DNA of 64,000 bases from Candidatus Latescibacterota bacterium (GCA_965261395.1 OZ253462.1:3296001-3360000), one strand, 5' to 3'; positions 11,346 to 64,000 are shown, counted from the stretch's first letter. Made by a program: numbers and translations. The notes: generated by a model not told the origin, from the sequence alone.

Positions 11346-11393
11346 GTCGAGATCTACCGAGATAATTCCACTCGAGTCTGGCAGGAGGGTGTT

Positions 11394-14135: not shown

Positions 14136-14174
14136 GTTCGCTTCTCTCGGTGGAACTTGGAGGCCGTATCGATC

Positions 14175-16364: not shown

Positions 16365-16407
16365 GATACTCCCGGGCGCGCTCAAACCCTGAATAGGATA
16401 ATCTGGT

Positions 16408-17190: not shown

Positions 17191-17243
17191 GGAAACCGGA
17201 TGAGTGGGAGTCTGCTGCCGTGAATTGCCGTGGAGAACGACGC

Positions 17244-43447: not shown

Positions 43448-43465
43448 CGCGAAGTGTCCCGCTCC

Positions 43466-45376: not shown

Positions 45377-47049
45377 TGTCTCTCTAATTGTGCTAGTTGT
45401 TCCCGCGCCTTGGCGTGGTTGGGGTTGTATTCCAGTACTTTTTCAAAGGCGCGTCGGGCGAGGTCTGCGCGGCCAAGACGCATCGACAACTGCCCCGCGC
45501 TGTAGCGAGCCTGCACATCGCTGGGCTCGATTTCAATACACGTCTGGAAACTGTGTGCCGCCTTGCGGTGCTCGCCCAACTGCACGTACACCTGACCCAA
45601 GAAATAGTGGCTGTCGCGGTGGTCCGGATCAATGGCCAAGGAGCGGTGGAAGGCGGCTACTGCCGCGGGCAAATCGCCGGCTTGGTATGCCGCCTTGCCC
45701 TGGCCGTAGTGCGCCCGCACGGAAGTAGAGTCCAAGTCCAGCGCCCGGGCAAAAAACGAGCGCGCCGAGTCCGGGCGACCAGCGGATGCGTGGGCTTCGC
45801 CCAAAAGACAATGTGCTTCCACATTGTGCGGGTCAAGGGCAATGGCTCGCTCTAAAGCCGAGATGCCTGCTGCCGGCGCGTTCTGGTACAGGCGGACCAT
45901 CGCCAAGCGGATATGCGCCTGCACGTAGGACGAATCAATTTCGATGGCGCGCGCCAGCAGAGCAGCAGCGCGGTCCCAGTAGCGCTGGTTGGCGTTTCTG
46001 ATGCCCTGCTTATAGTGCCGCTCGGCTGCACTTAGGCGCTGGAACGCGGTCGCAGCAGCCTCCGCCTCCGCCTGTTGCCCCACCTGCGCGTAGGCCTGGC
46101 TCAACAGGTAGTAAGTTCGGGGGTTCGACGAGTCTAAGTGGAGTACCTGTTCGAGAGCGGCAACGGCTTTGGTAGGCCGCTGTTGTTTAGTATGTATCCC
46201 GGCCAAGCCAATGAGAGACCCCACGTGCTCCGGCTGGAGGACCAAGACGCCTTTGAAACCGGCGGCGGCGGCTTCTAAATCACCGCTGCGGACCAGCAGG
46301 TCGCTGCGTCGGTACAGGGCCTCGGCGTGGTCTGGCTGGAGCGCGAGGGCCGCGTCGTAAGCGGCCAACGCTTGAGCAAAAGACGCCAAGGACCGGTGCG
46401 CTTCCCCCAAGCGAAAGTAGTAATGGGAATGGTCCGCTCTCAGGGCGATGGCCTGCTGAAGACAGGCGGCTGCGTCCCCGTAGCGATGATCTAGCTGGAG
46501 GGCTGTGCCGAGCGCGTAGTGAAAATCGGCCCTGTCTGGGGCGAGGGCCACGGCGCGTTCAAAGGCAGGTACGGCATGTCCGTTTTCGTCTAGGCGGGCA
46601 TGAGCCAGCCCAATGTAGAAGTAGGTCTGCGCCAGCCTAGGGGCATAGGTGGTCGCCTCGGTGAGAACGGTCAGTGCCCGGCGCAGGCGGCCCTGCTTGA
46701 GGAAGGCCCCGCCGCGCTGGCTCAACAGCGCACCCCGCTGCTGGTTTTTCCGCTGAATCAGCGAGTCTGGCAGGGCGCGTTCCAGATGTTGTCGATAAAC
46801 CTGGACCTGAATGGTATCGAGGCTCTGGTTATCTGCCGCTAGGAGGTAGCGATCGATGAGCAGCTGGAGGTACTGGCGCTTGTCCACCGCCTCACTAGGC
46901 TGTCCGGCCGGGAGCTGCTCGACGAAGGCACGCAAGTGCTGGGCCGTAATCTGGTGTGGCCCGACCTCGGCGACGACCGGGTCTTCGGCGGCGATACAGG
47001 CTGACGTTAGATACGCCAAAACGCAGCCTAGCAGCCGCGAACATCGCAC
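45373..47049 (-). CDS. TPR-repeat (lipo)protein with N-terminal SurA/PpiC-N-like segment
   Basis: Many TPR units (A..F..A..L.P...AHY.LG); possible lipobox TSAC. Start uncertain: GTG at 47049 was chosen to avoid overlap with the upstream gene. Confidence 0.8.
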   Translation of the reverse strand: MRCSRLLGCVLAYLTSACIAAEDPVVAEVGPHQITAQHLRAFVEQLPAGQPSEAVDKRQYLQLLIDRYLLAADNQSLDTIQVQVYRQHLERALPDSLIQRKNQQRGALLSQRGGAFLKQGRLRRALTVLTEATTYAPRLAQTYFYIGLAHARLDENGHAVPAFERAVALAPDRADFHYALGTALQLDHRYGDAAACLQQAIALRADHSHYYFRLGEAHRSLASFAQALAAYDAALALQPDHAEALYRRSDLLVRSGDLEAAAAGFKGVLVLQPEHVGSLIGLAGIHTKQQRPTKAVAALEQVLHLDSSNPRTYYLLSQAYAQVGQQAEAEAAATAFQRLSAAERHYKQGIRNANQRYWDRAAALLARAIEIDSSYVQAHIRLAMVRLYQNAPAAGISALERAIALDPHNVEAHCLLGEAHASAGRPDSARSFFARALDLDSTSVRAHYGQGKAAYQAGDLPAAVAAFHRSLAIDPDHRDSHYFLGQVYVQLGEHRKAAHSFQTCIEIEPSDVQARYSAGQLSMRLGRADLARRAFEKVLEYNPNHAKAREQLAQLERQ

Positions 47050-47096
47050 GAAATTTTTCTGTTCAAAGTGGGCGACCAAGGGAAGGGGGCAACGAA

Positions 47097-49226: not shown

Positions 49227-49347
49227 GTCCCGACCTCGATTTTTAGGGAGTGGAGGGCGTGAATGCAACATAGTAAAAAAAAACCCGCTATGCACTCTTT
49301 TGGCTAGGTTCTATATTAGCACATTCATTCCTAACAGGCAGGGTTTT

Positions 49348-52011
49348 ATGGGTTATCGGCTCATGTTGGGCATTCTCTGGGGGGCGCTAACGCTCGCCAC
49401 CGACCTGCTAGCACTCGATACCCTGCGGGTGGGCAACAACGGCAACGTCTCTTGGGCTGGACAGACCTTCGGCACCGCCGTGCAGACGCTCCCCGCCGAA
49501 TACAAGGTCAGCCGGTTCTCGACCGAGGTCGGCAATGTACCGGGCGACGTCATCGACCTGTCCAACCTAGTAGTGGTAAGCCCCCAAGTACTGGTCAAAA
49601 CCCTCATCCAAGCGCCGCCCGAACTGCTCGCCGGCGAGCTCGCCCTAGCCGAAGAAAAGCTGCTAGACGCGGTCTCATCCCTGCCGGGGGCGACGGCGAT
49701 CACGCCTTCCCAGCGCGAGGGACTCTCTCTGATTCACCTTGATTTTGCGGACGACATTCCCCTCGACGAGGCCGTGGCGCAGGTGGCTGCCGCCCTAGAT
49801 CCGGTGCGTTCCGCAGGCGTTGATCCACTCATCCTGCCGGTCTTGTTAAGCCCGGATCACGTCGTCCGTGGCGAGAACGTGGCCCAGCGCGCTCTCGGGT
49901 GGGGCGGCGGCATTACGGCACCGGCCATCAAGGACGTGCCCGCATCTGCGCTGGAGGCGACCTTGCTGGAGCTAATCGAGCCGGGCGGGGCCGAAGACGC
50001 GTTCGCCCGCAAGGGGGCCTTCGGGGCCTTGGGCACCTTTATCGTCCTCGATCTCGGCAGCCCCATTGGCATCAACCGCATCCGCTTCTATCCGCGCAAC
50101 ACCGTGCAGAGCGCGCCCCAGTACCCCTTTCAGACGGATTTTATCCGCCAGTTCGAGCTGCTCGCCCACGACGGGCAAGACCTCGTCTTAGACGGCACCG
50201 GACGCTTCGTGCCCCAGCTCGACGACTTCGAGCTGCTGCTGAGGACCACGACCAACGAAGAGTCGGTAGTGGAAGTGGTGATCGAACCCGCCCAGACCGC
50301 GCGCTTTGTGCGGCTCAAATCCACATCTTCCTTCCCCTATGAAATCGACGAGTTTGAGGTCTTCGGCGAGGGCTTTATCGGCACTAGCCGCTACATCTCC
50401 CACGTGTACGACTTGGGCGCACCCGCCACTTGGGGCCACATAAGCTGGCGGGAAAAAACCGTGGATTTGCGCACCCGCAGCAATCCGACCGACTCCACAC
50501 CCCAAGCCAGCACCTGCCAAGTCAAATCCGCGGTATTCACCACGCCCGACGCCATCCCAAGCGACTACGGCGATTGCACTCCAACGGCGCGTTTTACCGC
50601 GGACCAAGGCTACACCAACGTGTACGAGTGCTTCCAGACCCACTGCGGCGAGACCGTGCTGCCGGGCCGCCAGCAAAGCACGGAGCCAACAGCCAGTGAA
50701 CCCTCGCGCCTGTCAGGGCATACCAGTGGCGTCTCTGAGATCATCGTCCGCACCCGCACGGGCACCGACCCGACCCCAGTGCTCTACAAGCGCGGCAACG
50801 TGCAGCGCGTGTCGGACGACCAGCTTTCCTCCTCCATAGACCATCCGGGCGACCAGCTCGCGCGCGACGAATATCTCGATCTCGTGCCCGATCTCGAAGC
50901 CGTGCCCCCGCAGGTTTGGGGCAAGGGGGCAATCGAAGAGGATCTGCAAAACTGGAGCCCTTGGTCGTCGCCCCACCAAGGCGGCACGCCGGTTTTGTCG
51001 CCGGGGCCGCGTCGCTACATCCAGTTTTCCGTCGATTTCCTCAACAGCGAAATCAACGCGACGAAGGCGTTGGAGCAGCTATCCATCGAATACTTGCTGC
51101 CACCGATTGCCGAGGAACTCGTCGCCGAGATCTTCCCGCGGGAGGTGGAGGTCTTTGAATCGGTGGATTTCACGTATGCAGTGCGCGCCAAAATGGAGTT
51201 CGGCGGGGTCAAGGGGTTCGACACCTTTGAGCTGCTAACCTCCAGCCGAGTGCTGGGCATCGACAAGATCGAGATATGGGAACTGCCCGACCGCTTAGTC
51301 GCCGAGCAGGCCCTAAACGCCGACATCGTAACTGCTCCCAATGGCCTGTCCGCAGTCCAGACGCCCGACGGCACCCAACACGCCTTACCCTATACCGTAG
51401 AGTCCGCAGACGGCGGCTCCTTTGTCATTCAAGCGGTAACCGAGCGCAACGCGATCGTGCGCTTTCCCCAAATCATCCGACCACCCGACGGCGGCCAGAT
51501 GCTGCTGAAAATCAAGTTCCGCGGGCGCGTGCTGCTATACAGCACCTTGTTCCGCGGACAGGCCGTGCTTTCGTCGCAGGCCGGCAGCATCCAGCGCATC
51601 TCCGCGGGCAACGCCGACTTCTTAGGCGAAGGCGACCTACCCACGGCCTCTGGCATTACCGTGTTAAGCCCAGACATTAACAAAGGCGACCTGTTTGGCT
51701 CCTTTGCCATCGAGCCGGGTGTATTCACCCCCAACGGCGACGACATCAACGACGCCGTGACCATCGGCTACGACATCCTCGCGGTGACTCGACCAACCGC
51801 TGTAGCAGTGCACGTCTTCGACCTGTCTGGCCGCCTCGTAAAGCCACTCTACTCAGGGACAGATCTGAGCGGCCATTACGACGGCCTGTCTTGGGATGGC
51901 CGCGACGCCGACGGCAACCGGGTGCCACCGGGGCTGTACTTGGTGTCGCTTGCCGTAGATGGCGATGCGCGTCGGACGCGCAGGGTGCACACGGTAGGTG
52001 TGGCGTATTGA
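49348..52011 (+). CDS. secreted discoidin-like + FlgD-Ig/CHU_C-tail protein with insertions (paralogue 5)
   Basis: Signal peptide; DLGSPIGINRIRFYPR, EIDEFEVFGEGF, WGHISW, WSPWS, SPGPRRYIQ; FTPNGDDIND...WDGRDADGNRVPPGLY...VGVAY. Confidence 0.75.
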   Translation: MGYRLMLGILWGALTLATDLLALDTLRVGNNGNVSWAGQTFGTAVQTLPAEYKVSRFSTEVGNVPGDVIDLSNLVVVSPQVLVKTLIQAPPELLAGELALAEEKLLDAVSSLPGATAITPSQREGLSLIHLDFADDIPLDEAVAQVAAALDPVRSAGVDPLILPVLLSPDHVVRGENVAQRALGWGGGITAPAIKDVPASALEATLLELIEPGGAEDAFARKGAFGALGTFIVLDLGSPIGINRIRFYPRNTVQSAPQYPFQTDFIRQFELLAHDGQDLVLDGTGRFVPQLDDFELLLRTTTNEESVVEVVIEPAQTARFVRLKSTSSFPYEIDEFEVFGEGFIGTSRYISHVYDLGAPATWGHISWREKTVDLRTRSNPTDSTPQASTCQVKSAVFTTPDAIPSDYGDCTPTARFTADQGYTNVYECFQTHCGETVLPGRQQSTEPTASEPSRLSGHTSGVSEIIVRTRTGTDPTPVLYKRGNVQRVSDDQLSSSIDHPGDQLARDEYLDLVPDLEAVPPQVWGKGAIEEDLQNWSPWSSPHQGGTPVLSPGPRRYIQFSVDFLNSEINATKALEQLSIEYLLPPIAEELVAEIFPREVEVFESVDFTYAVRAKMEFGGVKGFDTFELLTSSRVLGIDKIEIWELPDRLVAEQALNADIVTAPNGLSAVQTPDGTQHALPYTVESADGGSFVIQAVTERNAIVRFPQIIRPPDGGQMLLKIKFRGRVLLYSTLFRGQAVLSSQAGSIQRISAGNADFLGEGDLPTASGITVLSPDINKGDLFGSFAIEPGVFTPNGDDINDAVTIGYDILAVTRPTAVAVHVFDLSGRLVKPLYSGTDLSGHYDGLSWDGRDADGNRVPPGLYLVSLAVDGDARRTRRVHTVGVAY

Positions 52012-52018
52012 GGGGAGG

Positions 52019-54220
52019 TTAGCGCCCAGCCCCCTTCAATCGCTCGTTCCACTGCTCTTTAAGTTGCTCGAAAATCTCCGCCGAGCGCCCCTCTCGGTAG
52101 TACTCGGTAAACTGCTCCAAGTGCTTCACTCCTTTGAGCGTATCCCCTAAGACCATGTACAAATGGCCGGCTAAGCGGTTGCCTTGATAGTGCGCTGGCT
52201 GAACGGCCAAAATGGCCTGCACCTGTTCCATGGCGGCCGCGGCGCGGTGCTCGACGACATACTGGGTGGCCAATAGCAAGCGGGCATCGACCGCGGCCGG
52301 GCTGCGAGCAATCACTTGCAGCAAAAGGGCCTTGGCCTCCTCGGCTTGGTCGGCGAAGAAGAGCAAGCGGGCCAAGCGGTAGCGCGCCGCAGCCTGCAGC
52401 GAATCCGTCGCTAGGATCTGCCGGTATTCGGCGCGGGCTGAGTCCAAGCGTTCCAGCCGCTCATATAGCTCGCCCAACTGCAGGCGCGCCTGCAGCGAAT
52501 CCGGTTTGGCGGCCACGAGCGCCCCATATGCGGCAACGGCTTGCTCCAATTGCCCTAACTGGGCGTGGGCATAGCCGAGCCGCCCGTAGAGATCCGCCGC
52601 GTCCGCGTCTTTGGCACCTAACAAGCCTTCGTAGGCAGCGATCGCTGCGGCATAACGGCCGGTTCGCAAATAGATGTTCCCCAGCGCCAGACGCGCCCGC
52701 GCAACTTCGGGAAAGCGGCGGATGAATTCGCCGTATGCAGCAACGGCTCGGTTGTATTCGCCGCTGCGGGCATACAAAGAGGCCAAGTTGAAACGCGCCC
52801 ACTTTATATCCGGGTCGAGCGTCAGCGCTTGCTCATAAGCGGCTATGGCATTGATCGGCAAACCCTTTTTCTCGTACACATAGCCCAATCGATAGTGCGT
52901 GTGGGCGTCGCCCTCCACATTCATCGCCCCCACCCGAAAATTGCACGCGACCACCAACAGGAATGCGGCACCGCAACCGACGAGCAGGTCCCGGTACGCC
53001 CCTCGTCGCCACAGCAGGTAGAGCTCCCGGCCACCATACGCGGCGAACATCAGTAGGATGGGGATCACGGGCAGGCGATAGCGCGCGCTAATAAAAAAAG
53101 CCACCACCGTCAGCATGTACGCACCGGCGAACAAGGCGAGCAACAGGGGTTCGGGGCGGCGCAGCAACCCGCTCCGATAGCTCAGGCCCAGCCCCACCAG
53201 CGCAAGCGGTGCCAGCAGCCCAAAGGGGAATGCCACGCCGTACTTCCACAAAAGCACGTGCAGCAACGGCGCGTACTGGCGGGCAAAGTAGAGGTCCTGA
53301 TTGCGGCCGATCTCGTCGCCATGCCAAAACAAATACAACTTGTACAGCAGCAGCTTCAGGTAGGTAAAAGGCTGATGGCGAATGAAATCCCAAGCTTCGG
53401 CAAAGAAAAAGCGGGATTGGGCCGAAGGCTGAGAAATGCCGGCCTCCACGCGCGGCCGCGCGGTTAATTCCAGCCACGCCGGCCCCGGCTGGATCGCCAC
53501 GGTCTCGTCGTAATGGGCGTTGTTGCCAATGTAAAAATTGAGACCAGCGTTAGAAGAAATAAGCACCCAATCGCCGCCCACATAGTAGTTGCGCAGGGTG
53601 ACCGGCGCGATGGCTAAAGCAGTCCCCAACAACAGTACGGCCACTCCCACTAATCGACCGCGACGCACCCATACCAACCACAGGGCAGCCACCGGCACAA
53701 ACGCCAGCACATTAGCCACGCACAGCGCGGAAAGGCCGCAGAGGAATCCAGGCAACAAAAGCCGCCGCGGTCGCCCCTCGGCCGCCCACAGCAGCGCCCA
53801 TAGCGCGAGCAGGTTTAACACCAGCGCGAGGGCCGGCGGCAGCAACTCAGCCTCGAAGAAGATGAAAGGCCCGTAGCAAGCGGCTAGCCCGGCCGCCAGA
53901 TAACCTACGGCAGGCGAAAAGACGCGCCCCAAGCGAAAAATCAGCAGGCACAGCGTGGCCCCCAGCGCGGCTTGGACTAGCCGCGGCAGGGTAAAACTCG
54001 GCTCAAAAAGCGCGTAGAGCGCGCCGAGGAAATGCGGGTAGAGCGGAGGTTGCCAAAAGGGCTGATCGCCGAAGTGGCCGAGGGCCATCGCCGCGGCCGC
54101 TTGGGTATAGGTTTTGGCGTCGACGAGGGGAAAATCGTAGAACGGGCTGCGCTGGCTCTGGAAGATGTACAGCAGCCGCAGCGCAAAAGCCGCGCCCCAG
54201 ACGAGCGCGAGTTTTCCCAC
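52019..54220 (-). CDS. GT-C fold (ArnT/PMT-like) membrane glycosyltransferase with C-terminal TPRs
   Basis: Multi-TM N-terminal half with DAKTY, PFWQPPLYP, RNY..G, GLNFYIGNN, RYRLP; TPR-rich C-terminal half. Confidence 0.8.
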   Translation of the reverse strand: MGKLALVWGAAFALRLLYIFQSQRSPFYDFPLVDAKTYTQAAAAMALGHFGDQPFWQPPLYPHFLGALYALFEPSFTLPRLVQAALGATLCLLIFRLGRVFSPAVGYLAAGLAACYGPFIFFEAELLPPALALVLNLLALWALLWAAEGRPRRLLLPGFLCGLSALCVANVLAFVPVAALWLVWVRRGRLVGVAVLLLGTALAIAPVTLRNYYVGGDWVLISSNAGLNFYIGNNAHYDETVAIQPGPAWLELTARPRVEAGISQPSAQSRFFFAEAWDFIRHQPFTYLKLLLYKLYLFWHGDEIGRNQDLYFARQYAPLLHVLLWKYGVAFPFGLLAPLALVGLGLSYRSGLLRRPEPLLLALFAGAYMLTVVAFFISARYRLPVIPILLMFAAYGGRELYLLWRRGAYRDLLVGCGAAFLLVVACNFRVGAMNVEGDAHTHYRLGYVYEKKGLPINAIAAYEQALTLDPDIKWARFNLASLYARSGEYNRAVAAYGEFIRRFPEVARARLALGNIYLRTGRYAAAIAAYEGLLGAKDADAADLYGRLGYAHAQLGQLEQAVAAYGALVAAKPDSLQARLQLGELYERLERLDSARAEYRQILATDSLQAAARYRLARLLFFADQAEEAKALLLQVIARSPAAVDARLLLATQYVVEHRAAAAMEQVQAILAVQPAHYQGNRLAGHLYMVLGDTLKGVKHLEQFTEYYREGRSAEIFEQLKEQWNERLKGAGR

Positions 54221-54224
54221 CGCG

Positions 54225-56933
54225 CTAGATGCCCAAGCCGGCGTACACCGTGATAAAGCCCTCGGTCACCGTGCGGGTTTTGATGTCTGGATCTTCAAAG
54301 TCGCGCGCGTCGAACTTCAGGCCGACCTGAGTGGTCAGCACGTAGCCTTGGTATTCGGCCACGTTGGTGACTTGGCTGGCAGTAATGAAGGACTGGAAGT
54401 TGTTGATCTCGGCCTCCAGATCCCGCAACAGCACGTATTCAACGCCGGTCGCTATGGTCGTGCGACGCATTACGGGCAGCTCCACTACCACGCCGAATAT
54501 CTCGGTCAGCTCTTCGCGGTCGTCCTTGGTAAACAGGTCGTAGGTCTGGCGGCGGTATTCACTTTTCCATCTCGGCAACACTCGCAGGCGCGACAGCTCG
54601 ACGAGATAATCGGCCTTGTTGATGACGCCCAAGAAAAACTCCTCGTCGTCCAAGCCGAACTGGGTGCGCGCCGTTTGGCCGAGGCGCTGGTGCCAGAGGT
54701 CGTATTTGAGCGAATTTTTAATCGTCAAATCCTCCAGCGGCTCGTACGTGTGGCCGATGTACAGCGAATTGTTGAGCGCGTCGCGCGCCAACAGTGGGTC
54801 TGGCACTTCCACGTTGCGGGAGTCGCGCAGGGTATTGCGATTGTGCCACTGGATTAGGTCGTCTGGAATGTCGTCCGCCACGCTCTTGAGCACTTCCATG
54901 ACCTTGAGCCGCCCCCAATTCGGATGATCCACATCGACGGTCAGCACACCATATGTGGCGCGGTTGCGCTGGTCTGAGGTAATCCGCTTCTCGCGCAAAT
55001 GTCCGGCAGTCACGCGGATTTCCGGGGTGATGTTGACGCCAGCATACACGTTGAAACCACGGCGGTCGCGCTTGTAGGGAAAGTCCGGCTCGTTGTCGTT
55101 TTCAAAGCGATCGACCCAGCCATTGTTGTTGGCGTCAATGCCGTAGAGAAATTCGGGACGATCTACGTGTTGCCGGAGGAAAGGCTCCTCGTAGTCCGGG
55201 ATCAGGTTAATAACGCGGCCATTGTCGTTTTGGTTGAAGTCGGGAATGAAGTCGTTGTTTTCGTCCCAACCCGGAAAGACCGCGCGATCGACCGACAGAG
55301 CGTCGTTGCGGCCCCAATCCGGGATGCGGTCTTGATCGTCGTTGTCCTCGACGAATTCCACCAGGAATCGCTCATTGCTGCCCGGGTTGTGGTCGGCAAA
55401 ATAACCGGAGTTGTAATCGATGAAGCCGTCTTGCTCGCTGATGTACGTCGAAGTGGCATAATCTGGGTCCATGCGGAACGCCTCGGCAAAAAAGAAATAC
55501 GGAGCGGCGCGCTTCCACAGGTTGAACATGTAGGCGTCCGCCGAGGGCTTCGCGGACGTACCCGACGAAGTGCTGTGATCGGTGTTGCCCTGGTCAGCGC
55601 TCGGATAGGGATACTTGCGATACGTGCGGCTGTTGTCCCACTCGCCGTACAAGTGAAAGCCCTTGACATCTTCCAACGCGAGCGTGAACCCAAATATCTG
55701 CGTTGCAGTGGGCAGGCCGTACTCAAACGAGACGACTTGCAGATTGGTGTTGTCCTTGACGTTGCCTGTGGCTCGCGCGACCAGCAGGAAAATGGGATCG
55801 TTGTTGCGGCCAGTTTGGCGGTTGGACGTAGCCTGCACTTTGTAGTCATTACCCAAGACCAAGTCGAACTGGACCTTGCGAATCTGCGACTTGTCCTGCG
55901 AAGCGACTAACAAAAAATCCGTGCTGTTGAAATCGTAGCGCAAGCGGATTTGCTCGTTGCCGTCGGCCGAGATAAAGCCCTCTTGCGGGAAGCCGCCTTC
56001 AACGACCGGTTCAAACCCAATCTCCTTGCCGCGGTCCACACTACCGTCCAAATAGGTAATGATGATGTCCGAGCCGGCGCTGAAAAACGCCGCGCCGCCC
56101 TCGCCATCGGCCGGTGAGTCGTCGCTGAGCAAAATTTCGATCCAAGAGATGGCTTCGTTCTTCTGATCTACGGTCAGTTCGCCCGCGAGGGGATTACCGC
56201 CAAAGCCGTCGGTGAGAGTATTCGACTGATGGGCATTGACAAAGTTGAAACCCAGCGTGGTGAAATCGCCCACCTGAACAGTGGTGCGCCCCCCCATCAG
56301 CGTGGTGTTGTTGGTGCGGTTGATGCCCTCGACATTCGTGCCCGAGCCACCCGATTCGCTCAGCCGCGAATACAGGAAGGTGAGCAAGTATTTGTCCGTG
56401 GCCAAGTCGAACTGGACCCCGTCGAAATCGGGTTTGGAAAAGGTCATGGGCGTCAAGGTCGTACGGATGCCGTTGCCAATGGTGATGGCGTAGTGATACT
56501 CGCCGACGGAGTCCGAGGCGATAAGCAGACTGTTGAACCAATTGCCAAAGCGACCATCCTTGAACAGCTCGTTGCCGCGCTGCAAGGGCTGGCTCTGGCT
56601 ATTGTTGTAGATGAGCCAGCCGCGATTGACGAAATTGCCAAAGAAGTCGTAGAAGTAGCTGCCCTCCAACGCCACATCGACGTAGCGCTGGTACGGCGAG
56701 CGGGCGTAGTTGGAATACTCCCACTGCCGCCAGCGGTACTCGTTGAAGAGCTCCTGCGGGATGTACCACTTTTTTACGGCCGGGTCTATCGCATCGAAAA
56801 GAACGCCCGAACCCTGTGGCTCGAACGTGGTCCTGCCGCCGCGTTGGACACCCAGCCGACTGCCGTAGTTTTGGGCACTGGCCGCGCCGGCTAGAATACA
56901 AAGCAAAGACGCAATAAAAAAACGCGTTCTCAT
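54225..56933 (-). CDS. putative outer-membrane beta-barrel protein (barrel paralogue B)
   Basis: AAGGAG RBS; signal peptide ASA-Q; shares GSGVLFDA.DPAVKKWY.PQELF, IRTTLTPMTFSKP, LSDDSP, EDNDDQDR.PDW and PDYEEPFLR with 11394-14135; ends FITVYAGLGI. Confidence 0.65.
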   Translation of the reverse strand: MRTRFFIASLLCILAGAASAQNYGSRLGVQRGGRTTFEPQGSGVLFDAIDPAVKKWYIPQELFNEYRWRQWEYSNYARSPYQRYVDVALEGSYFYDFFGNFVNRGWLIYNNSQSQPLQRGNELFKDGRFGNWFNSLLIASDSVGEYHYAITIGNGIRTTLTPMTFSKPDFDGVQFDLATDKYLLTFLYSRLSESGGSGTNVEGINRTNNTTLMGGRTTVQVGDFTTLGFNFVNAHQSNTLTDGFGGNPLAGELTVDQKNEAISWIEILLSDDSPADGEGGAAFFSAGSDIIITYLDGSVDRGKEIGFEPVVEGGFPQEGFISADGNEQIRLRYDFNSTDFLLVASQDKSQIRKVQFDLVLGNDYKVQATSNRQTGRNNDPIFLLVARATGNVKDNTNLQVVSFEYGLPTATQIFGFTLALEDVKGFHLYGEWDNSRTYRKYPYPSADQGNTDHSTSSGTSAKPSADAYMFNLWKRAAPYFFFAEAFRMDPDYATSTYISEQDGFIDYNSGYFADHNPGSNERFLVEFVEDNDDQDRIPDWGRNDALSVDRAVFPGWDENNDFIPDFNQNDNGRVINLIPDYEEPFLRQHVDRPEFLYGIDANNNGWVDRFENDNEPDFPYKRDRRGFNVYAGVNITPEIRVTAGHLREKRITSDQRNRATYGVLTVDVDHPNWGRLKVMEVLKSVADDIPDDLIQWHNRNTLRDSRNVEVPDPLLARDALNNSLYIGHTYEPLEDLTIKNSLKYDLWHQRLGQTARTQFGLDDEEFFLGVINKADYLVELSRLRVLPRWKSEYRRQTYDLFTKDDREELTEIFGVVVELPVMRRTTIATGVEYVLLRDLEAEINNFQSFITASQVTNVAEYQGYVLTTQVGLKFDARDFEDPDIKTRTVTEGFITVYAGLGI

Positions 56934-56945
56934 ACCGGACTCCTT

Positions 56946-56982
56946 AAAAAAATAAGGCGATGAGCTGGGTAGCCCATCGCCT
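56946..56982 (-). terminator. intrinsic terminator between the CBM9-like gene and the barrel gene
   Basis: Minus strand AGGCGATGGGCT-ACCC-AGCTCATCGCCT followed by TATTTTTTT. Confidence 0.75.
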
Positions 56983-57020
56983 GTAAATCTAAATCGAATG
57001 CCGGGTCGAGCCAGCAGGAC

Positions 57021-57923
57021 CTAGTGGTTAAACTCGGTTTTGATGCGGCCCCAAGTGCTGGATTCAACGGCTGTGGGGGCGGCTCCCCAGTCGATGGCGT
57101 CGTCGAGTTCGCTCATGACCATGTCGTTGTCTGCGCGGCAGCAGCCATTGGGCGATACCGACCAGAAACCCTGATAGTCTTCGAGAGCGGCTCCGCCTTC
57201 AATGTCGAAGTCGCCGAAGGTCCAGCTAATGGCGATGATCTGGCCTTCTTCGAGGTCGGTTTCTTCAGCAGCGGCCCGGTCGCCATCGTCGGGAATGAAG
57301 TCAAAGGGCCGGATCCAAGCCTCGTAGAAATACGTGCTCTCGCCGAACTCTTCTCCTGAAAACGTGTATGCGAACCTCCAGGCATCGTTGTTGTCTGGAT
57401 CGAGGACCCAGTCAAACGGGGGATTATAACCGCCCCACGCCCCAGCCGTCGGCGGCATGGACCAGTTGTACCCCACCTTGAGGATGCCGCCTTCCGTCCC
57501 GGGGGCATAACCGCCGCCGCCCTCGGCCTCGGGGTGGGTCGGCGACACATAGACTTCCCAAGCGTCGTCTGCCCACCAAGCATTAGGCTCTTCGGCGTCG
57601 CGGGTGTGGACGTTGTCGAAAACCTCGGCCATGAAATAGAGCAGGTTGGTATTGTCGTTCCAGCCGACAATCTGCCGCACGCTCAGGTCGCTTACGTCGA
57701 TCTCGCCGCGCAACTTGCTGTACACCGAATCGGAGTACTTGTCGTTGCCGACTTCGTAGGGAATCTGGGGCACGGCGGCCCAGTCTGCGTGATTGCCGTC
57801 GATGACCGGTATATTTTCATCCGGGAACTGCACGGCGAACAGGAGTTCGCCGGGAGGAAAGTGAGCCAGAGCCGGTAGCGCAACCACCGCGACGAGCAAG
57901 GCGCTTACTAACGTTTTTCGCAT
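57021..57923 (-). CDS. secreted acidic CBM9/DOMON-like protein with C-terminal PTAVESSTWGRIK motif
   Basis: Signal peptide (ALA-H); PVIDGNHADW, VGWND, LLYFMAEVFDN, DAWEVY, YEAWI. Start could be 57929. Confidence 0.7.
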   Translation of the reverse strand: MRKTLVSALLVAVVALPALAHFPPGELLFAVQFPDENIPVIDGNHADWAAVPQIPYEVGNDKYSDSVYSKLRGEIDVSDLSVRQIVGWNDNTNLLYFMAEVFDNVHTRDAEEPNAWWADDAWEVYVSPTHPEAEGGGGYAPGTEGGILKVGYNWSMPPTAGAWGGYNPPFDWVLDPDNNDAWRFAYTFSGEEFGESTYFYEAWIRPFDFIPDDGDRAAAEETDLEEGQIIAISWTFGDFDIEGGAALEDYQGFWSVSPNGCCRADNDMVMSELDDAIDWGAAPTAVESSTWGRIKTEFNH

Positions 57924-57953
57924 CTCCATCTCCTTGTAAATTGGCGTGAATAG

Positions 57954-57981
57954 GTAGGGGCGACCCACCGGTCGCCCCTAC
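57954..57981. repeat. GTAG-type REP-like palindrome
   Basis: GTAGGGGCGACC-CACC-GGTCGCCCCTAC; the stem can be extended over 57950-57985. Confidence 0.8.
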
Positions 57982-57997
57982 CTATATATCGCGCTTC

Positions 57998-58026
57998 AAG
58001 GTACTCCCAACAACGTTGAAAGTCAA
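57998..58026 (-). promoter_or_regulatory. sigma70-type promoter for the CBM9-like/barrel/GT operon
   Basis: Minus strand TTGACT (58026-58021), 17 nt, TACCTT (58003-57998). Confidence 0.5.
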
Positions 58027-58102
58027 GCGTCTTTTTTCCGTACCGCCGTGTTCATAGCTGCCGTTGCCTAAAATTCTAATTCCTTGTTATCAAAGGAGTT
58101 AT

Positions 58103-59845
58103 CTACTTCTGGCTCAGTGCCTGACGAATGCGCTCGGCCTCGCGGTGCGCCGGGTCGAGACGCAGCAAGGTCGTCCAAGCAGCGGCCATTTCCTCGTGGC
58201 GCTGCTGGCGGCGGTACAGCTCGCCCAAGCGGTAATACGCCTTAACAGCCTCGGCGTCTAGTGCCACGAGCGCGGTGTATTGCCGGATGGCGGCTTCTGT
58301 GCGGCCGACGCGCTCGTAGGCACGGCCGAGATTGTAGTGAGCTTTCAGATGGTGCGGTGCCAAACGCAGCACCGTGCCATAGTGTCCTATGGCCTCCTCG
58401 TAGCGGCCAGCTTTCTGGTAGGTCAGGCCGAGGTTAAAATGCGTTTCAACGTGGGTGGGATTCAGGGCTAATGCGGTTTTGAAGGACGTGATAGCCTCCT
58501 CGTAACGCCGTGCCGCGCTGTGCAGTATTCCGAGGTTGAAATGCGCTCGCAGCCGAGTCGGCTGGATGACCACCGCCCGCTGGTAGTGGTGGAAAGCGCG
58601 GGCGTATTGTCCCTGCTGATAGTAAGCAAACGCGAGGTTGTCGTGGGCGCGGGCGTTGTCTGGATAGTGTGCCAAAACCGCAGCAAACAAGCGGGCGTCG
58701 CTGTGCCAATCTCGGTTGCGAACTATGGTGCGCGCACCGCACAGCACCACTGCGCACAGCACCACCGCCCAAATTAGGCGCTGCTGTCGCGGATTTTTCC
58801 GCAGCCAGTACTGCCCGGCCCACCCCCAAGTCAGGGCCACCGGGATCATGGCCAAGTGCAGGTAGCGCTCGGCCATGCCGCTGGGTGCGAGAAAAAACAA
58901 ATTGGCCACCGGCAGCAGGCACCAGCCAAAGAACGCGCTGGTGAAGACGAGAAAGCGCGATCGCACCACCCAAGGCAGCGCAACTAACGCGATCACACAT
59001 GCCAAACCCGCGATAAACCACAGGTCCCAAGGCGACGCTACCGGGGGAATTGACGCATGCGAGTAATCTGCCGACAGGTGCAGCGGCGCGGCGATCAGCA
59101 GCAAATAGCGCGGTAGAATGGCCACGGCGGTGCCGAGCCGCTGCCACGGGCCAAGGTCGGCTAAAAAATTGGTAGAAATTGGCCCGGCAGGGGCGTCGGC
59201 CAACGCCAGCCAACGCAATGCCAAGACGCCCAGCAGGGCCACCCCATATCCCCAGTGTCGCTTGCTCCAAGCCGCTGCCCCCTCCCGTGAGTCGGCCAAG
59301 AACAGCGCGAGCGGCAAAACCATCGCCGTCTCCTTCGACAGGCAGGCCCCCGCGTACAGCAAATAGGCTAGTACGCGCCGCCGCCGGTGTGCTAGCAAAG
59401 CACTCAGCGACAACAGGCTGGCCAGCAAGTCGCCCCGCGCCGAGACCCAAGCCACCACTTCAGTCTGGAGGGGATGGCTCGCGTACAGTAAAGCGACCCA
59501 CAGCGCGGCGCGATCCTCGCCGAGCAGGTCGCGGGCCAAGGCGTACAGGAGCAGGCTATTGACCGAGTGCAACAGGACGTTGGTCAGATGATAGCCCCAA
59601 GGGGCTTCCCCGAAGAGCTGGAAATCGAGGCCGAGCGAGAGCAAGGTGAGCGGCCGGTACAGCTCCAGCCCCATCCAGCTAGCGCCAAAAAGCTCGCCTA
59701 GGGCCAGAGTGCGCACCGCGTCGCTAGCGAGGTACGCCGAGTCGTCGAAAACAAAGCCGTTGCCCAAGGTATTGGCGTAACACACCAGCGCCAACGCCGC
59801 TATGCAGATGGGGTGCGAAGTCGAAAACCGGATGCTAAAGCGCAT
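58103..59845 (-). CDS. TMTC-like (DUF1736 + TPR) protein O-mannosyltransferase-like membrane protein
   Basis: NGFVFDD, YRPLT, YHLTNVLLH, HPLQTEVVAWVSARGDLL, SKETA, PLHLSADY, MAERYL, RNRDW, followed by TPRs. Confidence 0.85.
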   Translation of the reverse strand: MRFSIRFSTSHPICIAALALVCYANTLGNGFVFDDSAYLASDAVRTLALGELFGASWMGLELYRPLTLLSLGLDFQLFGEAPWGYHLTNVLLHSVNSLLLYALARDLLGEDRAALWVALLYASHPLQTEVVAWVSARGDLLASLLSLSALLAHRRRRVLAYLLYAGACLSKETAMVLPLALFLADSREGAAAWSKRHWGYGVALLGVLALRWLALADAPAGPISTNFLADLGPWQRLGTAVAILPRYLLLIAAPLHLSADYSHASIPPVASPWDLWFIAGLACVIALVALPWVVRSRFLVFTSAFFGWCLLPVANLFFLAPSGMAERYLHLAMIPVALTWGWAGQYWLRKNPRQQRLIWAVVLCAVVLCGARTIVRNRDWHSDARLFAAVLAHYPDNARAHDNLAFAYYQQGQYARAFHHYQRAVVIQPTRLRAHFNLGILHSAARRYEEAITSFKTALALNPTHVETHFNLGLTYQKAGRYEEAIGHYGTVLRLAPHHLKAHYNLGRAYERVGRTEAAIRQYTALVALDAEAVKAYYRLGELYRRQQRHEEMAAAWTTLLRLDPAHREAERIRQALSQK

Positions 59846-59893: not shown

Positions 59894-61558
59894 ATGGATA
59901 CTTTAAACAGAAACCTTTTGCGGCGCAGATGCGCCATCGCGTGGGTGGCATTGATTTTGTGGGTGGCCTGCAGCCAGCAAGACGCGCCACCGGTAGCCAC
60001 CGTCGGCGAGGTGCCCGTCACAGGAGCAGAACTGCGCCGATTTGCGTCAAACGTGCTGCCGGGGCTGCGTCCAGCCCAACAGGGGCAAGCAGCGCGGCAG
60101 GATTACTTGCAGACCTTGATCGACCGCCATCTCATGCTGCGCCAAGCGCGCGAAATGGGATTAGACAGCGAGCCGGCCGTGTGGGTCGAGCAGCTACTCC
60201 AGCGGCGCACCTATCTGGCGAACCTGTACCGAAAGCGCGACCTGCATCCCCAAGCGCAAGTTGCAGACGCGGACATCGCCCACTTTTTCGCAGAACAAGA
60301 CCTCGGGCGCGAGCGCCTCATGACGGCCATTTTGCTCCAGACCAAGGCCGAGGCACAAGCGATCCAGCGCCAGCTCGCAGCCGGCGCTTCCTTTGCCGAC
60401 CTCTCCGCTCAACACACGCTCGACCCGCGCACGGCCGCCCAGCGCGGCCAGATCGGCTTTGTCAATCGCTCCATGGCCAGCCGCCTTGGGGTTCCAGAGG
60501 TCGTATTCGATCACCAGCCGACCGGCGTCGTATCCGAGCCGTTGCCCTTGGGCCGGCGATTTCACTTGGTGCGCTTTATAGAGGATCGCCAAGTAGAGAT
60601 CGATAGCCAGCGCGACTTGCTCGCCCAACAGATGGCCAAAGCCAAGAGGCGGGAGGTCGAGCGGCAGCAGGTCGAACTCCTCGCCTATGAATTGGGCTGG
60701 CATTTGACCGCGCAGGGGCTAGCCGCCCTGCCATCGCAAGCGAATGCACCTCTGTTCGCGTATGCAGGCGGTCAGGTCTCCACCGAAGAATATCTAGAGG
60801 TACTGAAGAAGCATCAGATAACGCGACCAGAGGCGCTACGGGACAGCGCGGCCATTGCGGCTTTTGCGCGCCGCGCTATCCTGCCGGAGCTCGTTTTGGC
60901 CGACGCGGCCGAAAAGGCGGGCTATCACCAAGAGCCAGAGGCCGCGGCGCATTTGGCCAAGGCCGACGAAGAATTGCTGCTCAAGGCCGCGTATCAACGC
61001 CAAGTAAGCGATGCGGTCGCCGTAGCCGCAGCCGATGTCGAGCGCTATATCGCAGAGTATCCCGAACGATTCACCATCCCGGAGTCCATCTGCTTTGACG
61101 AGCTGATCGCGCCCAGCCTGCCAGAGGCACAGCAGCTCAAAGAGACCTTGACCGGCCAAGAGGATTGGGCCGCACTAGCCGAGGCTCGCGACTTCCCGCT
61201 GCGACCGCGGCGCGCCGACGGCCTCGTCTGCATGCACCGCTACAACAGCATTCCGTACCCCCAGCTCTGGCGCGCCCTGCAACAGGCCGAGGTAGGGGTC
61301 CTAAACGGCCCCGTGCGAACCCGCGAGGGATTCGCTTTGTTCGTGGTGATCCGCACCGAGCCCGCCCGCCCAGAGCCGCCACAGCAGGCACGGCAACGGG
61401 CGCGGGCAGCCCTCGTGCAGCAGGCCGAACAAGCGCGCTTTGACCAATGGATTGCGGCACTGCGAGCAAAATACCGCGATGAAATCGACATATCCGCCGA
61501 GCAACTCGCCGCTGCCCTGCCCGATTCGCTGCTAGCCAACCTAGTACAGCGCGAGTGA
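59894..61558 (+). CDS. PpiC/parvulin-type peptidyl-prolyl isomerase lipoprotein (second copy)
   Basis: Lipobox WVAC; ILLQTKAEA...GASFADLSAQHT...RGQIGF; second degenerate parvulin domain; paralogous to 17244-18752. Confidence 0.82.
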   Translation: MDTLNRNLLRRRCAIAWVALILWVACSQQDAPPVATVGEVPVTGAELRRFASNVLPGLRPAQQGQAARQDYLQTLIDRHLMLRQAREMGLDSEPAVWVEQLLQRRTYLANLYRKRDLHPQAQVADADIAHFFAEQDLGRERLMTAILLQTKAEAQAIQRQLAAGASFADLSAQHTLDPRTAAQRGQIGFVNRSMASRLGVPEVVFDHQPTGVVSEPLPLGRRFHLVRFIEDRQVEIDSQRDLLAQQMAKAKRREVERQQVELLAYELGWHLTAQGLAALPSQANAPLFAYAGGQVSTEEYLEVLKKHQITRPEALRDSAAIAAFARRAILPELVLADAAEKAGYHQEPEAAAHLAKADEELLLKAAYQRQVSDAVAVAAADVERYIAEYPERFTIPESICFDELIAPSLPEAQQLKETLTGQEDWAALAEARDFPLRPRRADGLVCMHRYNSIPYPQLWRALQQAEVGVLNGPVRTREGFALFVVIRTEPARPEPPQQARQRARAALVQQAEQARFDQWIAALRAKYRDEIDISAEQLAAALPDSLLANLVQRE

Positions 61559-61573: not shown

Positions 61574-64000
61574 ATGACCATCCAACGCACACCCTTACGC
61601 TGGATCCTGCCGCTGTTCCTTTTCTTGAGCCAAGCGGGAGCACAGGAGGGGTTTGAGCTAACCGCCGACGGCATGGCCATAAATCGAGCCGCGCAATGGG
61701 AACACTGGACGCGGCCCAAACACGCCGTGCGCATCAACCCCCAGACCCATGCTATTATTCCGCGCCGCATAGGCCAAGCGACCGACGCCATCCTAGACGT
61801 CGACCGCTTCCAGACCCTGATCGGCAACCAGAGTGCATACGACAAACTGGTTAAGGAATTAAACCGCGCCGACCGCCCCATACCGCTCAACATCCGCACG
61901 GCCCCGGCCACCGTAGCCGGGGTGCCGATCATCTATCTAAAGGCCAACACAAAGAAGAACATCGAGATCGGCGATCCGATCATCTGGTATTACTATCACG
62001 GCGGCATCCGCCACGCCGGCACCAGCGCCGAAACCGCCGCGGCCATACTCGACGGCGACCCCGCGACCTATTGGGAACCCAGCACCTTGGTCTCCCGCAC
62101 CGAATACAACGACCTCGCGCCGGCCGCCAAGGGGCCTATCTACTTTTTCGTCAAAGGCGACGATGGCCTAGAGCGGCGGGTAGATGAAGCCGCGTACGAA
62201 GCAGCTGCCCCGGGGGATCGCCGCGTGGAATACCACAACCACTCGCTCGAAAATTGGACGGTCGATATCGACTTAGGCCGGCTGGTGCCAATCTCCAAGG
62301 TGGTGTTGCGCTTCCTAGACCCTGGCGAGGGCGAACCTTTCCGCCAAGTGCGCCTACTTGGCACGCCTTCGGACGCCCGGGGTGCGGCTTTATCGCTCAT
62401 AGACCGCACCATTGCCCCGGTCGAAAACCAAACCTCGGTGGAGTTCAACCTCGACCCAGATGATGAGGGTATTTACCGGCAACTCCACATCCTCCGCATC
62501 GCGGTCACCGACAGCAAGCTAAACAAGTTCGCGGCCGTGACGGAAGCTGAGTTCGCCGCCCTGTCGCTCGACCAACAGGGCGGCATCGACTACCACATCG
62601 TCAACGCGGCCGGCACTGAGACCAAGGTCGCCCGCAGCATCTACGAGGACGTCTCTCCCGAGCGCCGCGGTCGCCTCGTCCACCATCGGCGCGAGCGGCC
62701 CCGCCTAGCGGCCGTAGAAGTGTGGACCCAGGGCGACAACATCGCCCTCGACGTAATCAATGGCGGCGGCAGCGTCGAGCTGACCGGCACCTTCGGCGGC
62801 CTGCCCGGCTTCGACGGCCGCTACGAGAGCAACTTCCTCCAATTCGTCTGGTCGCCCGACCCCCGCTTTGAAGATCGCGGCATTATGATCCTCGACCTCG
62901 GGGCGCGCTTCTGGCTCAACTACTTCCGCATGGTAGGCGGCATCAGCGGGGTGGACGAATTGGTCGTCCGCATCTCCGACGGCACCCGAGATTCCAACGG
63001 CAGCCTGAAGTGGCGCGAGATGTACCGCCGGGCAGGATCTGCACAGAATTCTACCCCATGGTCGGGGGTATCAGTGGGTGCGGCGGAGAACGGGTTCGAA
63101 AGACTTGAGCAAGTGCGCTACCTGAACAGCCAGATATATACCAGCCAAGCAGGCCGCGCCGGCGGGTACAACACCGGCGACCGCATCCGCGAGGTGCAGC
63201 TATTCGGCGAGGGCTACCCCTCTGAAGTCACAGTCACCTCGCCGATGATCGAGCTGCCCGGCTCGGTCATTCTCGGCCCCATTGAATGGGAAGCCGACCT
63301 GCCGGACTCAGACCTAGTCGATGTCCAGATCCGCACGCGCACCGGCGACCGCCTCGTAGAGATCGTCGAGTACTACGGCAACGGCGGCGATCTCAAGACC
63401 GAAACCGAGTACACCAACCTGCCGACCAACTTTAAGGGACCGGTCGTGGATAAGCTGCAGCCCGGCGGCGGCTGGAGTAGCTGGAGCCAGCGCTATACCC
63501 GCTCGGGCCAGTTCGTGACCTCCCCCAGCCCGCGCCGCTTCTTGCAGATCCAAGCGCGGCTGCTCTCCACCTCGCCCGACGTGGCGGCCAGCCTGCGCTC
63601 CATTACCGTGAAATTCCTGCCCCCAGTGGCGCACCGGACCGTCGCCGAGATCTGGCCCAATACGGTCGAGCCGCGGGAAATGCGCGAGTTTGCACTTTAC
63701 CTCAAGCCCACTTTTGTCGAGCACCAGCCCGGGGGACCGCCCAGCCGACGCTTTGACGAGATATTGCTGGACGCCGCACCCATAGAGACGCTCTCTATCA
63801 CCGATGTGGCTCTCGGCCAGGAAGAAGATTTCGATCGTGGCCAACCCCGCCGCCTCTTCTCCGCCGCCAGCGCGGACGTGCTGATCGACGCGGCCACTGG
63901 CGATTCCCTGAAGATCTTCCCGGCGGATACTGGCACCGGCCTGCGATTACTCCTCCCCGAAAAGGTGGCCTTGCAGGCCGCAGACGACGATACCCGCACC
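61574..64000 (+). CDS. secreted two-discoidin protein of the FlgD-tail family (paralogue 6), runs off the window
   Basis: Not in the ORF track because it has no stop in the window. GGAGG RBS; MTIQRTPLRWILPLFLFLSQAGA-Q; LDGDPATYWEP, IDLGRLV, EVWTQGDN, LDLGARFW, EVQLFGEGY, IRTRTG, WSSWS, SPSPRRFLQ, AEIWP. The C-terminal tail itself is not visible. Confidence 0.8.
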   Translation, partial: MTIQRTPLRWILPLFLFLSQAGAQEGFELTADGMAINRAAQWEHWTRPKHAVRINPQTHAIIPRRIGQATDAILDVDRFQTLIGNQSAYDKLVKELNRADRPIPLNIRTAPATVAGVPIIYLKANTKKNIEIGDPIIWYYYHGGIRHAGTSAETAAAILDGDPATYWEPSTLVSRTEYNDLAPAAKGPIYFFVKGDDGLERRVDEAAYEAAAPGDRRVEYHNHSLENWTVDIDLGRLVPISKVVLRFLDPGEGEPFRQVRLLGTPSDARGAALSLIDRTIAPVENQTSVEFNLDPDDEGIYRQLHILRIAVTDSKLNKFAAVTEAEFAALSLDQQGGIDYHIVNAAGTETKVARSIYEDVSPERRGRLVHHRRERPRLAAVEVWTQGDNIALDVINGGGSVELTGTFGGLPGFDGRYESNFLQFVWSPDPRFEDRGIMILDLGARFWLNYFRMVGGISGVDELVVRISDGTRDSNGSLKWREMYRRAGSAQNSTPWSGVSVGAAENGFERLEQVRYLNSQIYTSQAGRAGGYNTGDRIREVQLFGEGYPSEVTVTSPMIELPGSVILGPIEWEADLPDSDLVDVQIRTRTGDRLVEIVEYYGNGGDLKTETEYTNLPTNFKGPVVDKLQPGGGWSSWSQRYTRSGQFVTSPSPRRFLQIQARLLSTSPDVAASLRSITVKFLPPVAHRTVAEIWPNTVEPREMREFALYLKPTFVEHQPGGPPSRRFDEILLDAAPIETLSITDVALGQEEDFDRGQPRRLFSAASADVLIDAATGDSLKIFPADTGTGLRLLLPEKVALQAADDDTRT

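Follow-up and report, generated by a model that had tools for sequence, protein, structure and literature searches.

In a 64,000-nucleotide stretch of DNA from a Candidatus Latescibacterota bacterium (hereafter the window), we examined a four-gene cassette in which two putative GT-C glycosyltransferases, each ending in tetratricopeptide repeats (TPRs) and here termed GT1 and GT2, are encoded together with a large predicted outer-membrane β-barrel (barrel B) and a secreted CBM9-like protein. The order of these genes is kept in nearly all assessable loci of Latescibacterota type. From this gene order and by analogy with characterised enzymes, we give roughly even odds (a probability of about 0.5) to dedicated periplasmic glycosylation of the cassette's own proteins; GT1 has the barrel as its first candidate client and GT2 has the CBM9-like protein. 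The features of the cassette, in window coordinates, are:

58103-59845, minus strand: GT2, a TMTC-like GT-C enzyme with TPRs, 580 residues
57021-57968, minus strand: CBM9-like secreted protein, 315 residues as the longest open reading frame (ORF)
56982-56955, minus strand: terminator-like hairpin separating barrel B from the CBM9-like gene, a 12-pair stem with a T run
54225-56933, minus strand: barrel B, predicted outer-membrane β-barrel, 902 residues
54221-54224, minus strand: spacer from the barrel B stop to the GT1 start, four bases (CGCG)
52019-54220, minus strand: GT1, a PMT_2-type GT-C enzyme with TPRs, 733 residues

The four genes run head to tail on the minus strand in the order GT2, CBM9-like gene, barrel B and GT1. 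GT1 begins with a GTG at 54220 and the barrel B stop is a TAG ending at 54225, and reading these four intervening bases directly from the sequence confirmed the earlier note, which had placed the start of an ArnT/PMT-like TPR gene 4 bp past the barrel stop. Its placement of a TMTC-like gene upstream on the same strand was likewise correct, this gene being GT2. The two enzymes had also been described as bracketing the barrel, and GT1 and GT2 do flank it; however, GT2 is separated from the barrel by both the CBM9-like gene and the terminator-like hairpin. In this hairpin seven of the 12 stem pairs are GC and the stem is followed by TATTTTTTTA, but it is weak on its own because the pattern scan that detected it performed no better than shuffles, reporting 11 such sites across the region where shuffled sequence gave 10.2 on average.

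The cassette is strongly conserved in other genomes. Six of 28 GT2 loci of Latescibacterota type were cut by contig ends, and in 21 of the 22 that could be assessed GT2, the CBM9-like gene, the barrel and GT1 follow one another in this order. The lowest identities are 49% in GT2, 58% in GT1, 65% in the CBM9-like protein and 76% in the barrel. The sole exception carries GT2 and the CBM9-like gene at one locus (L022) and the barrel with GT1 2.3 Mb away in the same genome (L007); its break point corresponds to the position of the hairpin in the window, which fits a cassette built from two units, GT2-CBM and barrel-GT1. Outside this group, none of 50 distant GT2 homologues from other phyla (25-45% identity) lay near a barrel or a CBM9-like gene.

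We also searched with a profile of the GT1 family, which gave 575 relatives, and examined the neighbours of the best 80 loci. A full-length barrel ended just upstream of the enzyme gene in 40 of these, a barrel lay within 6 kb in 14, none was present in 18 and eight had no flank, giving a barrel directly upstream in 40 of 72 assessable loci. Row reading of the same 80 loci showed ~11 with a CBM9-like gene directly upstream and five with a divergent one, and together these counts indicate that the enzymes accompany either a barrel or a CBM9-like gene. The check by co-occurrence that the earlier note had proposed therefore reveals a linkage that is both strong and old, as seen in the 21 ordered cassettes and the 40 barrel-GT1 adjacencies, and one outcome that the note had named as refuting its idea, an absence of linkage elsewhere, is clearly contradicted.

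A similar pattern is found within this genome, a single 6.55-Mb contig in which we mapped modules and paralogues using a crude ORF set of our own. Searching with the GT1 N-domain identified 13 family members. Six of them immediately follow a same-strand barrel, at gaps of 0-14 bp, and ten are within 10 kb of a barrel, compared with means of 0.19 (maximum 3) and 1.18 (maximum 6), respectively, in 2000 random draws, although these are counts of paralogous modules that arose by duplication and so are not independent events. All six GT1-adjacent barrels fall in one clade of ten in a quick IQ-TREE analysis (Shimodaira-Hasegawa approximate likelihood ratio test, SH-aLRT, 100%), with barrel B branching first, and five of the six partner GT1 genes also cluster (support 90). 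This parallel clustering suggests that the pair was duplicated as a unit, and it is for this reason that the six adjacent cases cannot be taken as independent. Between GT1 paralogues the TPR region is 22-35% identical and variable in length, against 31-52% identity for the glycosyltransferase domain, and between GT1 orthologues the corresponding values are 50-85% and 58-89%. At one module of the GT1-linked barrel clade (from genome position 6234243), an unassigned 354-residue ORF in the 6246063 region fills the GT1 slot after the barrel and may be a remnant or a replacement.

GT1 passes the Pfam PMT_2 profile (PF13231) at 36.8 bits against a cut-off of 26.1, with TPRs matched over residues 439-716 and no match to TMTC_DUF1736 in Pfam, and its C-terminal TPR domain comprises about nine repeats (residues 439-730). 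An AlphaFold2 (AF2) model of GT1, with a predicted local distance difference test (pLDDT) score of 88.6, shows 11 transmembrane (TM) helices followed by a TPR superhelix, with two long loops containing short helices at residues 23-76 and 216-332. A crude hydropathy scan under-detected the TM helices (eight in GT1 and five in GT2) and was discarded. Sequence searches of solved structures with GT1 and GT2 returned TPR proteins only, a GT1 N-domain profile gave chance matches only against solved structures (best E = 1.5), and in a Foldseek search with the whole GT1 model TPR proteins swamped the list. The GT-C fold was visible only with VIA-align, using a wide search of the N-domain (model residues 1 to ~450) against 48,161 PDB representatives. 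Here, the model matched AglB (3waj, Z 24.3), Pmt1/2 (6p2r_B, Z 22.6 over 340 residues, root mean square deviation (rmsd) 4.2), STT3 (Z 22.4), ArnT (5f15, Z 22.3 over 307 residues, rmsd 3.6) and Pmt4 (9e61, Z 21.6), with ALG12 also matched. As modelled, the GT1 N-domain is a GT-C fold. The ArnT equivalog was not among the NCBIfam matches listed for GT1 and GT2 (the best 25 of 26 and of 31).

Examination of the GT1 model showed that D34 sits just ahead of the first loop helix, and it is conserved in 19 of 20 aligned members and in 79/79 loci, while R15, P59, Y61, E303 and R382 are invariant. Judged by its position in loop 1, D34 would be equivalent to D55 of ArnT and D77 of Pmt1. Loop 1 of all GT-C enzymes lies on the extracytoplasmic side, and as the number of TM helices in GT1 is odd, the TPR domain should lie on the same side as loop 1. 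Helix count and homology thus suggest that the catalytic loop and the TPR domain of GT1 both face the periplasm, which agrees with the topology of the metazoan TMTC1-4, O-mannosyltransferases of extracellular cadherin (EC) domains (CAZy GT105), and of TfpW, the pilin D-arabinofuranosyl transferase of Pseudomonas aeruginosa.

GT2 likewise passes PMT_2 (38.7 bits, cut-off 26.1), with TPRs over residues 384-565, and it also matches TMTC_DUF1736 (PF08409), which is the loop that joins TM7 to TM8 in TMTCs, at 24.5 bits (E = 2.6e-5) but below the cut-off of 27. This family is matched at E <= 0.01 by seven of 15 GT2-family members, with a best value of 1.4e-8. GT2 carries the motifs FVFDD (31-35), LYRP (62-65), SKETAM (170-175) and AERYLH (324-329), the last of which ends the ERxxY motif in H where the family consensus reads ERYLY. 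All 15 homologues, from several phyla, share D34, D35, Y63 and P65, with K171 nearly invariant, and GNGFVFDD is invariant in the family. The motifs of TMTCs, as given by Eisenhaber and colleagues (PMC7801869), are DD in EL1, (SHKS)YRP, KET(Q)xxT and ERxxY, and the DD, YRP and KET of GT2 correspond to TMTC motifs M1, M2 and M4. From its motifs and the literature, the TPR domain of GT2 would also be periplasmic. By its sequence GT2 belongs to a broad family of bacterial TMTC-like proteins, and within it the Latescibacterota branch alone has joined the cassette. Judged from these features, GT1 and GT2 both resemble active GT-C enzymes that face the periplasm and carry their TPR domain on the catalytic side. 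The only two other GT2 paralogues in the genome are weak matches that lie in tandem at 2079938-2084160, ~9-14 kb downstream of its single gene for SprA, the translocon of type IX secretion (2065172-2070727).

Barrel B has a signal peptide and no match to any Pfam-A family (E <= 0.01), NCBIfam family or PDB sequence, the PorP/SprF profile included. Its AF2 model, built from an alignment of 35 homologues (pLDDT 68.4, predicted TM-score (pTM) 0.71), contains ~24 long strands, connected by short turns at one end of the barrel and by long loops at the opposite end. Loop 4 bears an insert modelled well as a β-sandwich (residues 243-404) and loop 6 an acidic one (residues 495-623); by the usual rule for outer-membrane proteins both would face outward. 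Foldseek returned generic large barrels with low TM-scores, comprising MtrB (E = 9e-11), SlpA, TonB-dependent transporters, LptD and FimD. The N-terminal 100 residues (window ~56634-56933) contain many aromatic and charged residues that are invariant in the 35 homologues, yet are modelled at a pLDDT of 33-48, and may form a plug or a partner-binding segment. Homologues of the barrel are 'hypothetical proteins' of Latescibacterota metagenome-assembled genomes, some labelled Gemmatimonadota, and on the strength of the model barrel B is a member of an undescribed family of Latescibacterota outer-membrane barrels.

The CBM9-like protein scores 21.8 bits against Pfam CBM9_1, just short of the 23.4 cut-off, and 0.94-0.97 against ESM Atlas clusters that bear CBM9_1, with 94% CBM9_1 members in the 0.94 cluster. 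Its sequence suggests a secreted, DOMON-clan-like β-sandwich with a signal peptide, and the true start of the gene is probably a downstream ATG ahead of this peptide. There are 29 paralogues in this genome, and comparison with the barrel profile using hhalign showed no relation (probability 0.35%). A further PMT_2 gene that falls outside the GT1 family (59.4 bits, genome 5540380-5540853, minus strand) lies ~3 kb from the CBM9-like gene of another module.

The barrel and the CBM9-like protein belong to a wider surface module, and the genome encodes 46 barrel paralogues in ~32 such modules. Typically a module has one or two barrels and between two and four secreted proteins that end in CHU_C- or FlgD_ig-type tails, along with a SurA-like isomerase and a small protein that is CBM9-like or related. 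The genome also encodes SprA, PorU and ~150-200 proteins with C-terminal sorting domains (CTDs), and because SprA and PorU are present the module tails are plausibly signals for a type IX secretion system (T9SS). A GT1-type enzyme is present in only ~1 in 5 modules of this genome, which marks it as an accessory tied to one module subtype instead of a general part of the module.

Taking these results together, we favour a reading in which GT1 and GT2 would be inner-membrane GT-C glycosyltransferases that use polyprenyl-phosphate-sugar donors, with the catalytic loop and the C-terminal TPR superhelix of each directed toward the periplasm. They would act as fixed accessories of one subtype of a surface module formed of a giant barrel, T9SS-tailed cargo, a CBM9-like protein and a SurA-like isomerase, and each enzyme would glycosylate a protein of its own cassette during the passage of that protein through the periplasm, with the TPR domain holding the client. 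That the acceptor would be a protein, which protein it would be and the role of the TPRs are all suggested by gene order and by analogy with TMTCs and TfpW. The earlier note had proposed the β-sandwich proteins of the module generally as clients, but by gene order the first client to consider would be the barrel in the case of GT1 and the CBM9-like protein in that of GT2, and when the cassette split GT1 remained with the barrel and GT2 with the CBM9-like gene. T9SS cargo proteins would be the next candidates. A cassette protein as client is also favoured by the greater divergence of the TPR region than of the catalytic domain between GT1 paralogues, whereas orthologues preserve both.

Within barrel B, the strongest hint for an acceptor would be the β-sandwich insert in loop 4, which holds 14 of the 24 residues specific to GT1-adjacent barrels against 4.3 expected (hypergeometric p = 8e-6), although this enrichment of clade-specific residues may just reflect a more variable region. 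Together with the non-independence of the within-genome counts, several other observations weigh against dedicated glycosylation. No Ser/Thr-rich tracts were found in the module proteins, and both their Ser plus Thr fraction and their densest 20-residue window are equal with or without a nearby GT1. GT1 lies directly downstream of only 6/46 barrels and most modules are without it, including that of the second barrel in the window (barrel A, below), so glycosylation is not needed for the module as such. No Glycos_transf_2 gene, a possible maker of a lipid-linked donor, lies near any GT1, with 16 scattered elsewhere in the genome. Furthermore, PMT_2-type enzymes such as ArnT also modify lipids and polymers, so the fold is not proof of a protein acceptor. 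Finally, one barrel-adjacent GT1 paralogue on a long branch (L096, genome 2490011-2491954) carries D34A, R380E and Y381T, and is possibly an inactive copy retained beside its barrel; these losses fit a non-catalytic role, at least there.

One alternative is that the module's T9SS-tailed cargo is what the enzymes act on, for example by adding sugars to the C-terminal sorting domains, and that adjacency to the barrel is operon packing only. The common module subtype, in which barrel and GT1 are followed by two or three cargo genes, would suit this, as would the presence of SprA, PorU and the many CTD proteins. However, cargo with the same tails is found in all modules and GT1 in only about a fifth of them, the four-base coupling of GT1 is to the barrel, and the split cassette preserved the barrel-GT1 and CBM9-GT2 pairs, so that we regard cargo as the principal client as rather unlikely.

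Also unlikely is a non-protein acceptor, in which GT1 and GT2 would act, in the manner of ArnT- or YfhO-like enzymes, on an envelope lipid or glycopolymer such as a glycolipid that anchors T9SS cargo, with the TPR domain docking the enzyme to the barrel complex. The absence of Ser/Thr-rich acceptor tracts from the module proteins is in keeping with this, and the GT1 fold matches ArnT as well as it does the PMTs (Z 22.3 versus 22.6). In addition, protein P0002 weakly matches a 'cell surface glycopolymer formation' family (31.3 bits, cut-off 150), and polysaccharide export typically uses TPR-plus-barrel pairs (BcsC and PgaA). A single acceptor is nevertheless hard to square with 13 paralogues that have strongly divergent TPRs and are each tied to a different paralogous protein set; the cassette holds no genes for polysaccharide or donor synthesis, and the characterised GT-C enzymes with TPRs (TfpW and the TMTCs) act on proteins.

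A mainly structural role is quite unlikely. Here, the TPR domain, anchored in the inner membrane, would assist the barrel as a chaperone in the periplasm or tether it across the envelope, like the TPRs of BamD, BepA and PelB, with catalysis secondary or lost. Retention of L096 beside its barrel despite the changes at D34 and R380/Y381 is in keeping with such a role, and the four-base coupling suggests matched amounts of barrel and GT1. However, the loop-1 Asp in 79/79 loci, with E303 and R382 in 20/20 aligned members, argues for selection on catalysis. The N-terminal 100 residues of the barrel, with their high conservation and low model confidence, have the character of a segment folded by a partner, but conservation of this region extends to all 46 paralogues, the majority of which lack a GT1.

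Accidental neighbourhood of abundant GT-C/TPR paralogues and barrel modules has a negligible probability: with 19 PMT_2 matches and 46 barrels in the genome some proximity is expected, but chance is refuted by the within-genome draws (6/13 adjacent against 0.19 expected and at most 3 in 2000), by a gene order kept in 21/22 loci down to 49-58% identity, and by a barrel directly upstream in 40/72 assessable family loci (from the best 80 of 575 relatives).

If dedicated glycosylation by GT1 does occur, one extension is that a glycan on the loop-4 insert of the barrel would be the point at which the T9SS sortase PorU attaches tailed cargo, with the glycosylated barrel replacing anionic lipopolysaccharide (LPS) as the anchor. 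We consider this highly unlikely, although if true it would represent a paralogue-matched enzyme-anchor-cargo system with one dedicated glycosyltransferase per anchor.

Contigs from RNA libraries, drawn from coded runs in four studies, match parts of the barrel in every study, the CBM9-like gene in three and parts of GT1 in two. One contig of 183 bases (X17, 54099-54281) spans the barrel-GT1 junction, but contigs cannot prove one transcript. They come partly from relatives (90-99% alike) and may contain DNA, so that the near-complete lack of cover over GT2 is not informative on its expression. The contigs show presence in sponge-labelled and other metatranscriptome libraries and not operon structure.

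We found no description of the cassette in the literature retrieved on the Latescibacterota outer membrane and T9SS, on periplasmic GT-C/TPR enzymes or on T9SS O-glycosylation. In one genomic study of Latescibacterota from sponges, TPRs are handled as 'eukaryotic-like proteins' and neither 'outer membrane' nor 'secretion system' occurs in the accessible text. The design of a GT-C domain with a periplasmic TPR domain and its adjacency to a substrate gene are already known from TfpW, and the design is also found in animal TMTCs. Compared with the literature found, the new elements are the fixed coupling of GT-C/TPR enzymes to an undescribed family of giant barrels and to CBM9-like proteins, their multiplication into paralogue-matched pairs, and a two-enzyme cassette conserved across Latescibacterota.

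Bacterial GT-C glycosyltransferases with TPRs are widespread and, to our knowledge, almost none has a known client, TfpW being the main characterised case. Animal TMTCs are linked to disease and their substrate recognition is not understood. With 13 enzymes in one genome, most of them beside a distinct barrel or CBM9-like gene, the present system offers concrete enzyme-client candidates, and its paralogue-matched pairs form a natural series for how TPR domains set specificity. If the dedicated glycosylation proposed here is correct, GT1 would be the first dedicated glycosyltransferase for an outer-membrane barrel. In addition, the cassette provides a defined accessory to an undescribed and massively expanded surface module of uncultured Latescibacterota, here in sponge-associated samples.

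The cassette is flanked in the window by other genes of the module:

59894-61558, plus strand: SurA-like peptidyl-prolyl isomerase, divergent from GT2 (Rotamase, Rotamase_2 and SurA_N_3)
61574-64000, plus strand: large secreted module protein of the T9SS-tail cargo class, exceeding the window (1086 residues in the genome)
49141-52011, plus strand: secreted module protein of 956 residues, convergent with GT1 (FlgD_ig 29.3 bits, CHU_C 24.7 bits)
47097-49295, minus strand: secreted module protein of 732 residues with a CHU_C (T9SS type B) C-terminal domain (39.1 bits, cut-off 27)
45373-47217, minus strand: periplasmic protein of 614 residues, with a SurA_N-like N-terminus followed by ~13 TPRs (TPR families over residues 155-600)

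In other genomes the isomerase and cargo genes that flank the cassette hold their places, those for the large secreted protein and the 956-residue protein included, and the SurA-like isomerase beside GT2 is conserved at L014, L016 and L036. The 956-residue protein carries a FlgD_ig/CHU_C-type sorting domain at its C-terminus, and the part of the large secreted protein that lies in the window matches no Pfam family. The first 150 residues of the 614-residue protein cross-match the module isomerases, and it may be a chaperone-like variant without the rotamase domain.

The window also contains a second module of the same kind (5600-18752, plus strand), which has no GT-C/TPR gene:

5600-8095, 8175-11345 and 14157-16364, plus strand: cargo genes
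11394-14135, plus strand: barrel A, 46% identical to barrel B
16408-17190, plus strand: protein of 260 residues from a 12-member family
17220-18752, plus strand: SurA-like isomerase

A transposase-like gene (HTH_38 and rve integrase core; 4404-5501, plus strand) lies directly 5' of this first module along the window, and two further proteins also adjoin it, one of the DUF5940 type that includes an ACP_syn_III-like part (18749-20206) and one like component B of glycine/sarcosine/betaine reductase (22043-23362). Two sulfatase genes, a gene for a formylglycine-generating enzyme (FGE-sulfatase) and two FG-GAP/ASPIC (UnbV) proteins flank the modules (522-3672 and 41046-45376), which fits degradation of sulfated glycans as a lifestyle.

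Among known systems, the module resembles the T9SS type B and PorP/SprF arrangement of Bacteroidota in that cargo with CHU_C or FlgD_ig tails is encoded beside a dedicated outer-membrane barrel, with SprA and PorU present. However, barrel B, with ~24 strands, ~900 residues and no Pfam match, differs from PorP/SprF. Glycosylation of T9SS cargo in the periplasm has been reported for Cytophaga hutchinsonii (PMC11611037), and the accessible text of that report describes no GT-C/TPR enzyme in Bacteroidota cargo-barrel pairs.

With the PMT (GT39) and ArnT (GT83) families, GT1 and GT2 share a PMT_2 match above the gathering score, and the GT1 model superposes on Pmt1/2, Pmt4 and ArnT, its similarity to ArnT being no greater than that to PMTs. 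Unlike PMTs, neither GT1 nor GT2 has a MIR domain. The resemblance to TMTCs is carried by GT2, which has a GT-C N-domain and C-terminal TPRs, the loop-1 DD, YRP, KET and ER-x-x motifs and a weak DUF1736 match; furthermore, TMTCs act on folded β-sandwich domains and the cassette offers such domains. In contrast to TMTCs, the DUF1736 score of GT2 falls under the Pfam cut-off (24.5 against 27 bits), the cassette contains no cadherin domains, and the bacterial donor would be carried on an undecaprenyl-type carrier and not on dolichol.

The closest parallel in layout is TfpW, an enzyme of 11 TM helices that bears a DDX motif and whose C-terminal TPR domain is periplasmic, and which is encoded directly downstream of its substrate gene pilA (bioRxiv 10.1101/2020.04.19.049825). 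GT1, with its gene four bases behind that of the barrel, has the same layout. Here, however, the partner gene encodes a 902-residue outer-membrane barrel or a CBM9-like protein and not a pilin, and the GT1 family has multiplied to 13 paralogues in this genome that are matched to paralogous modules.

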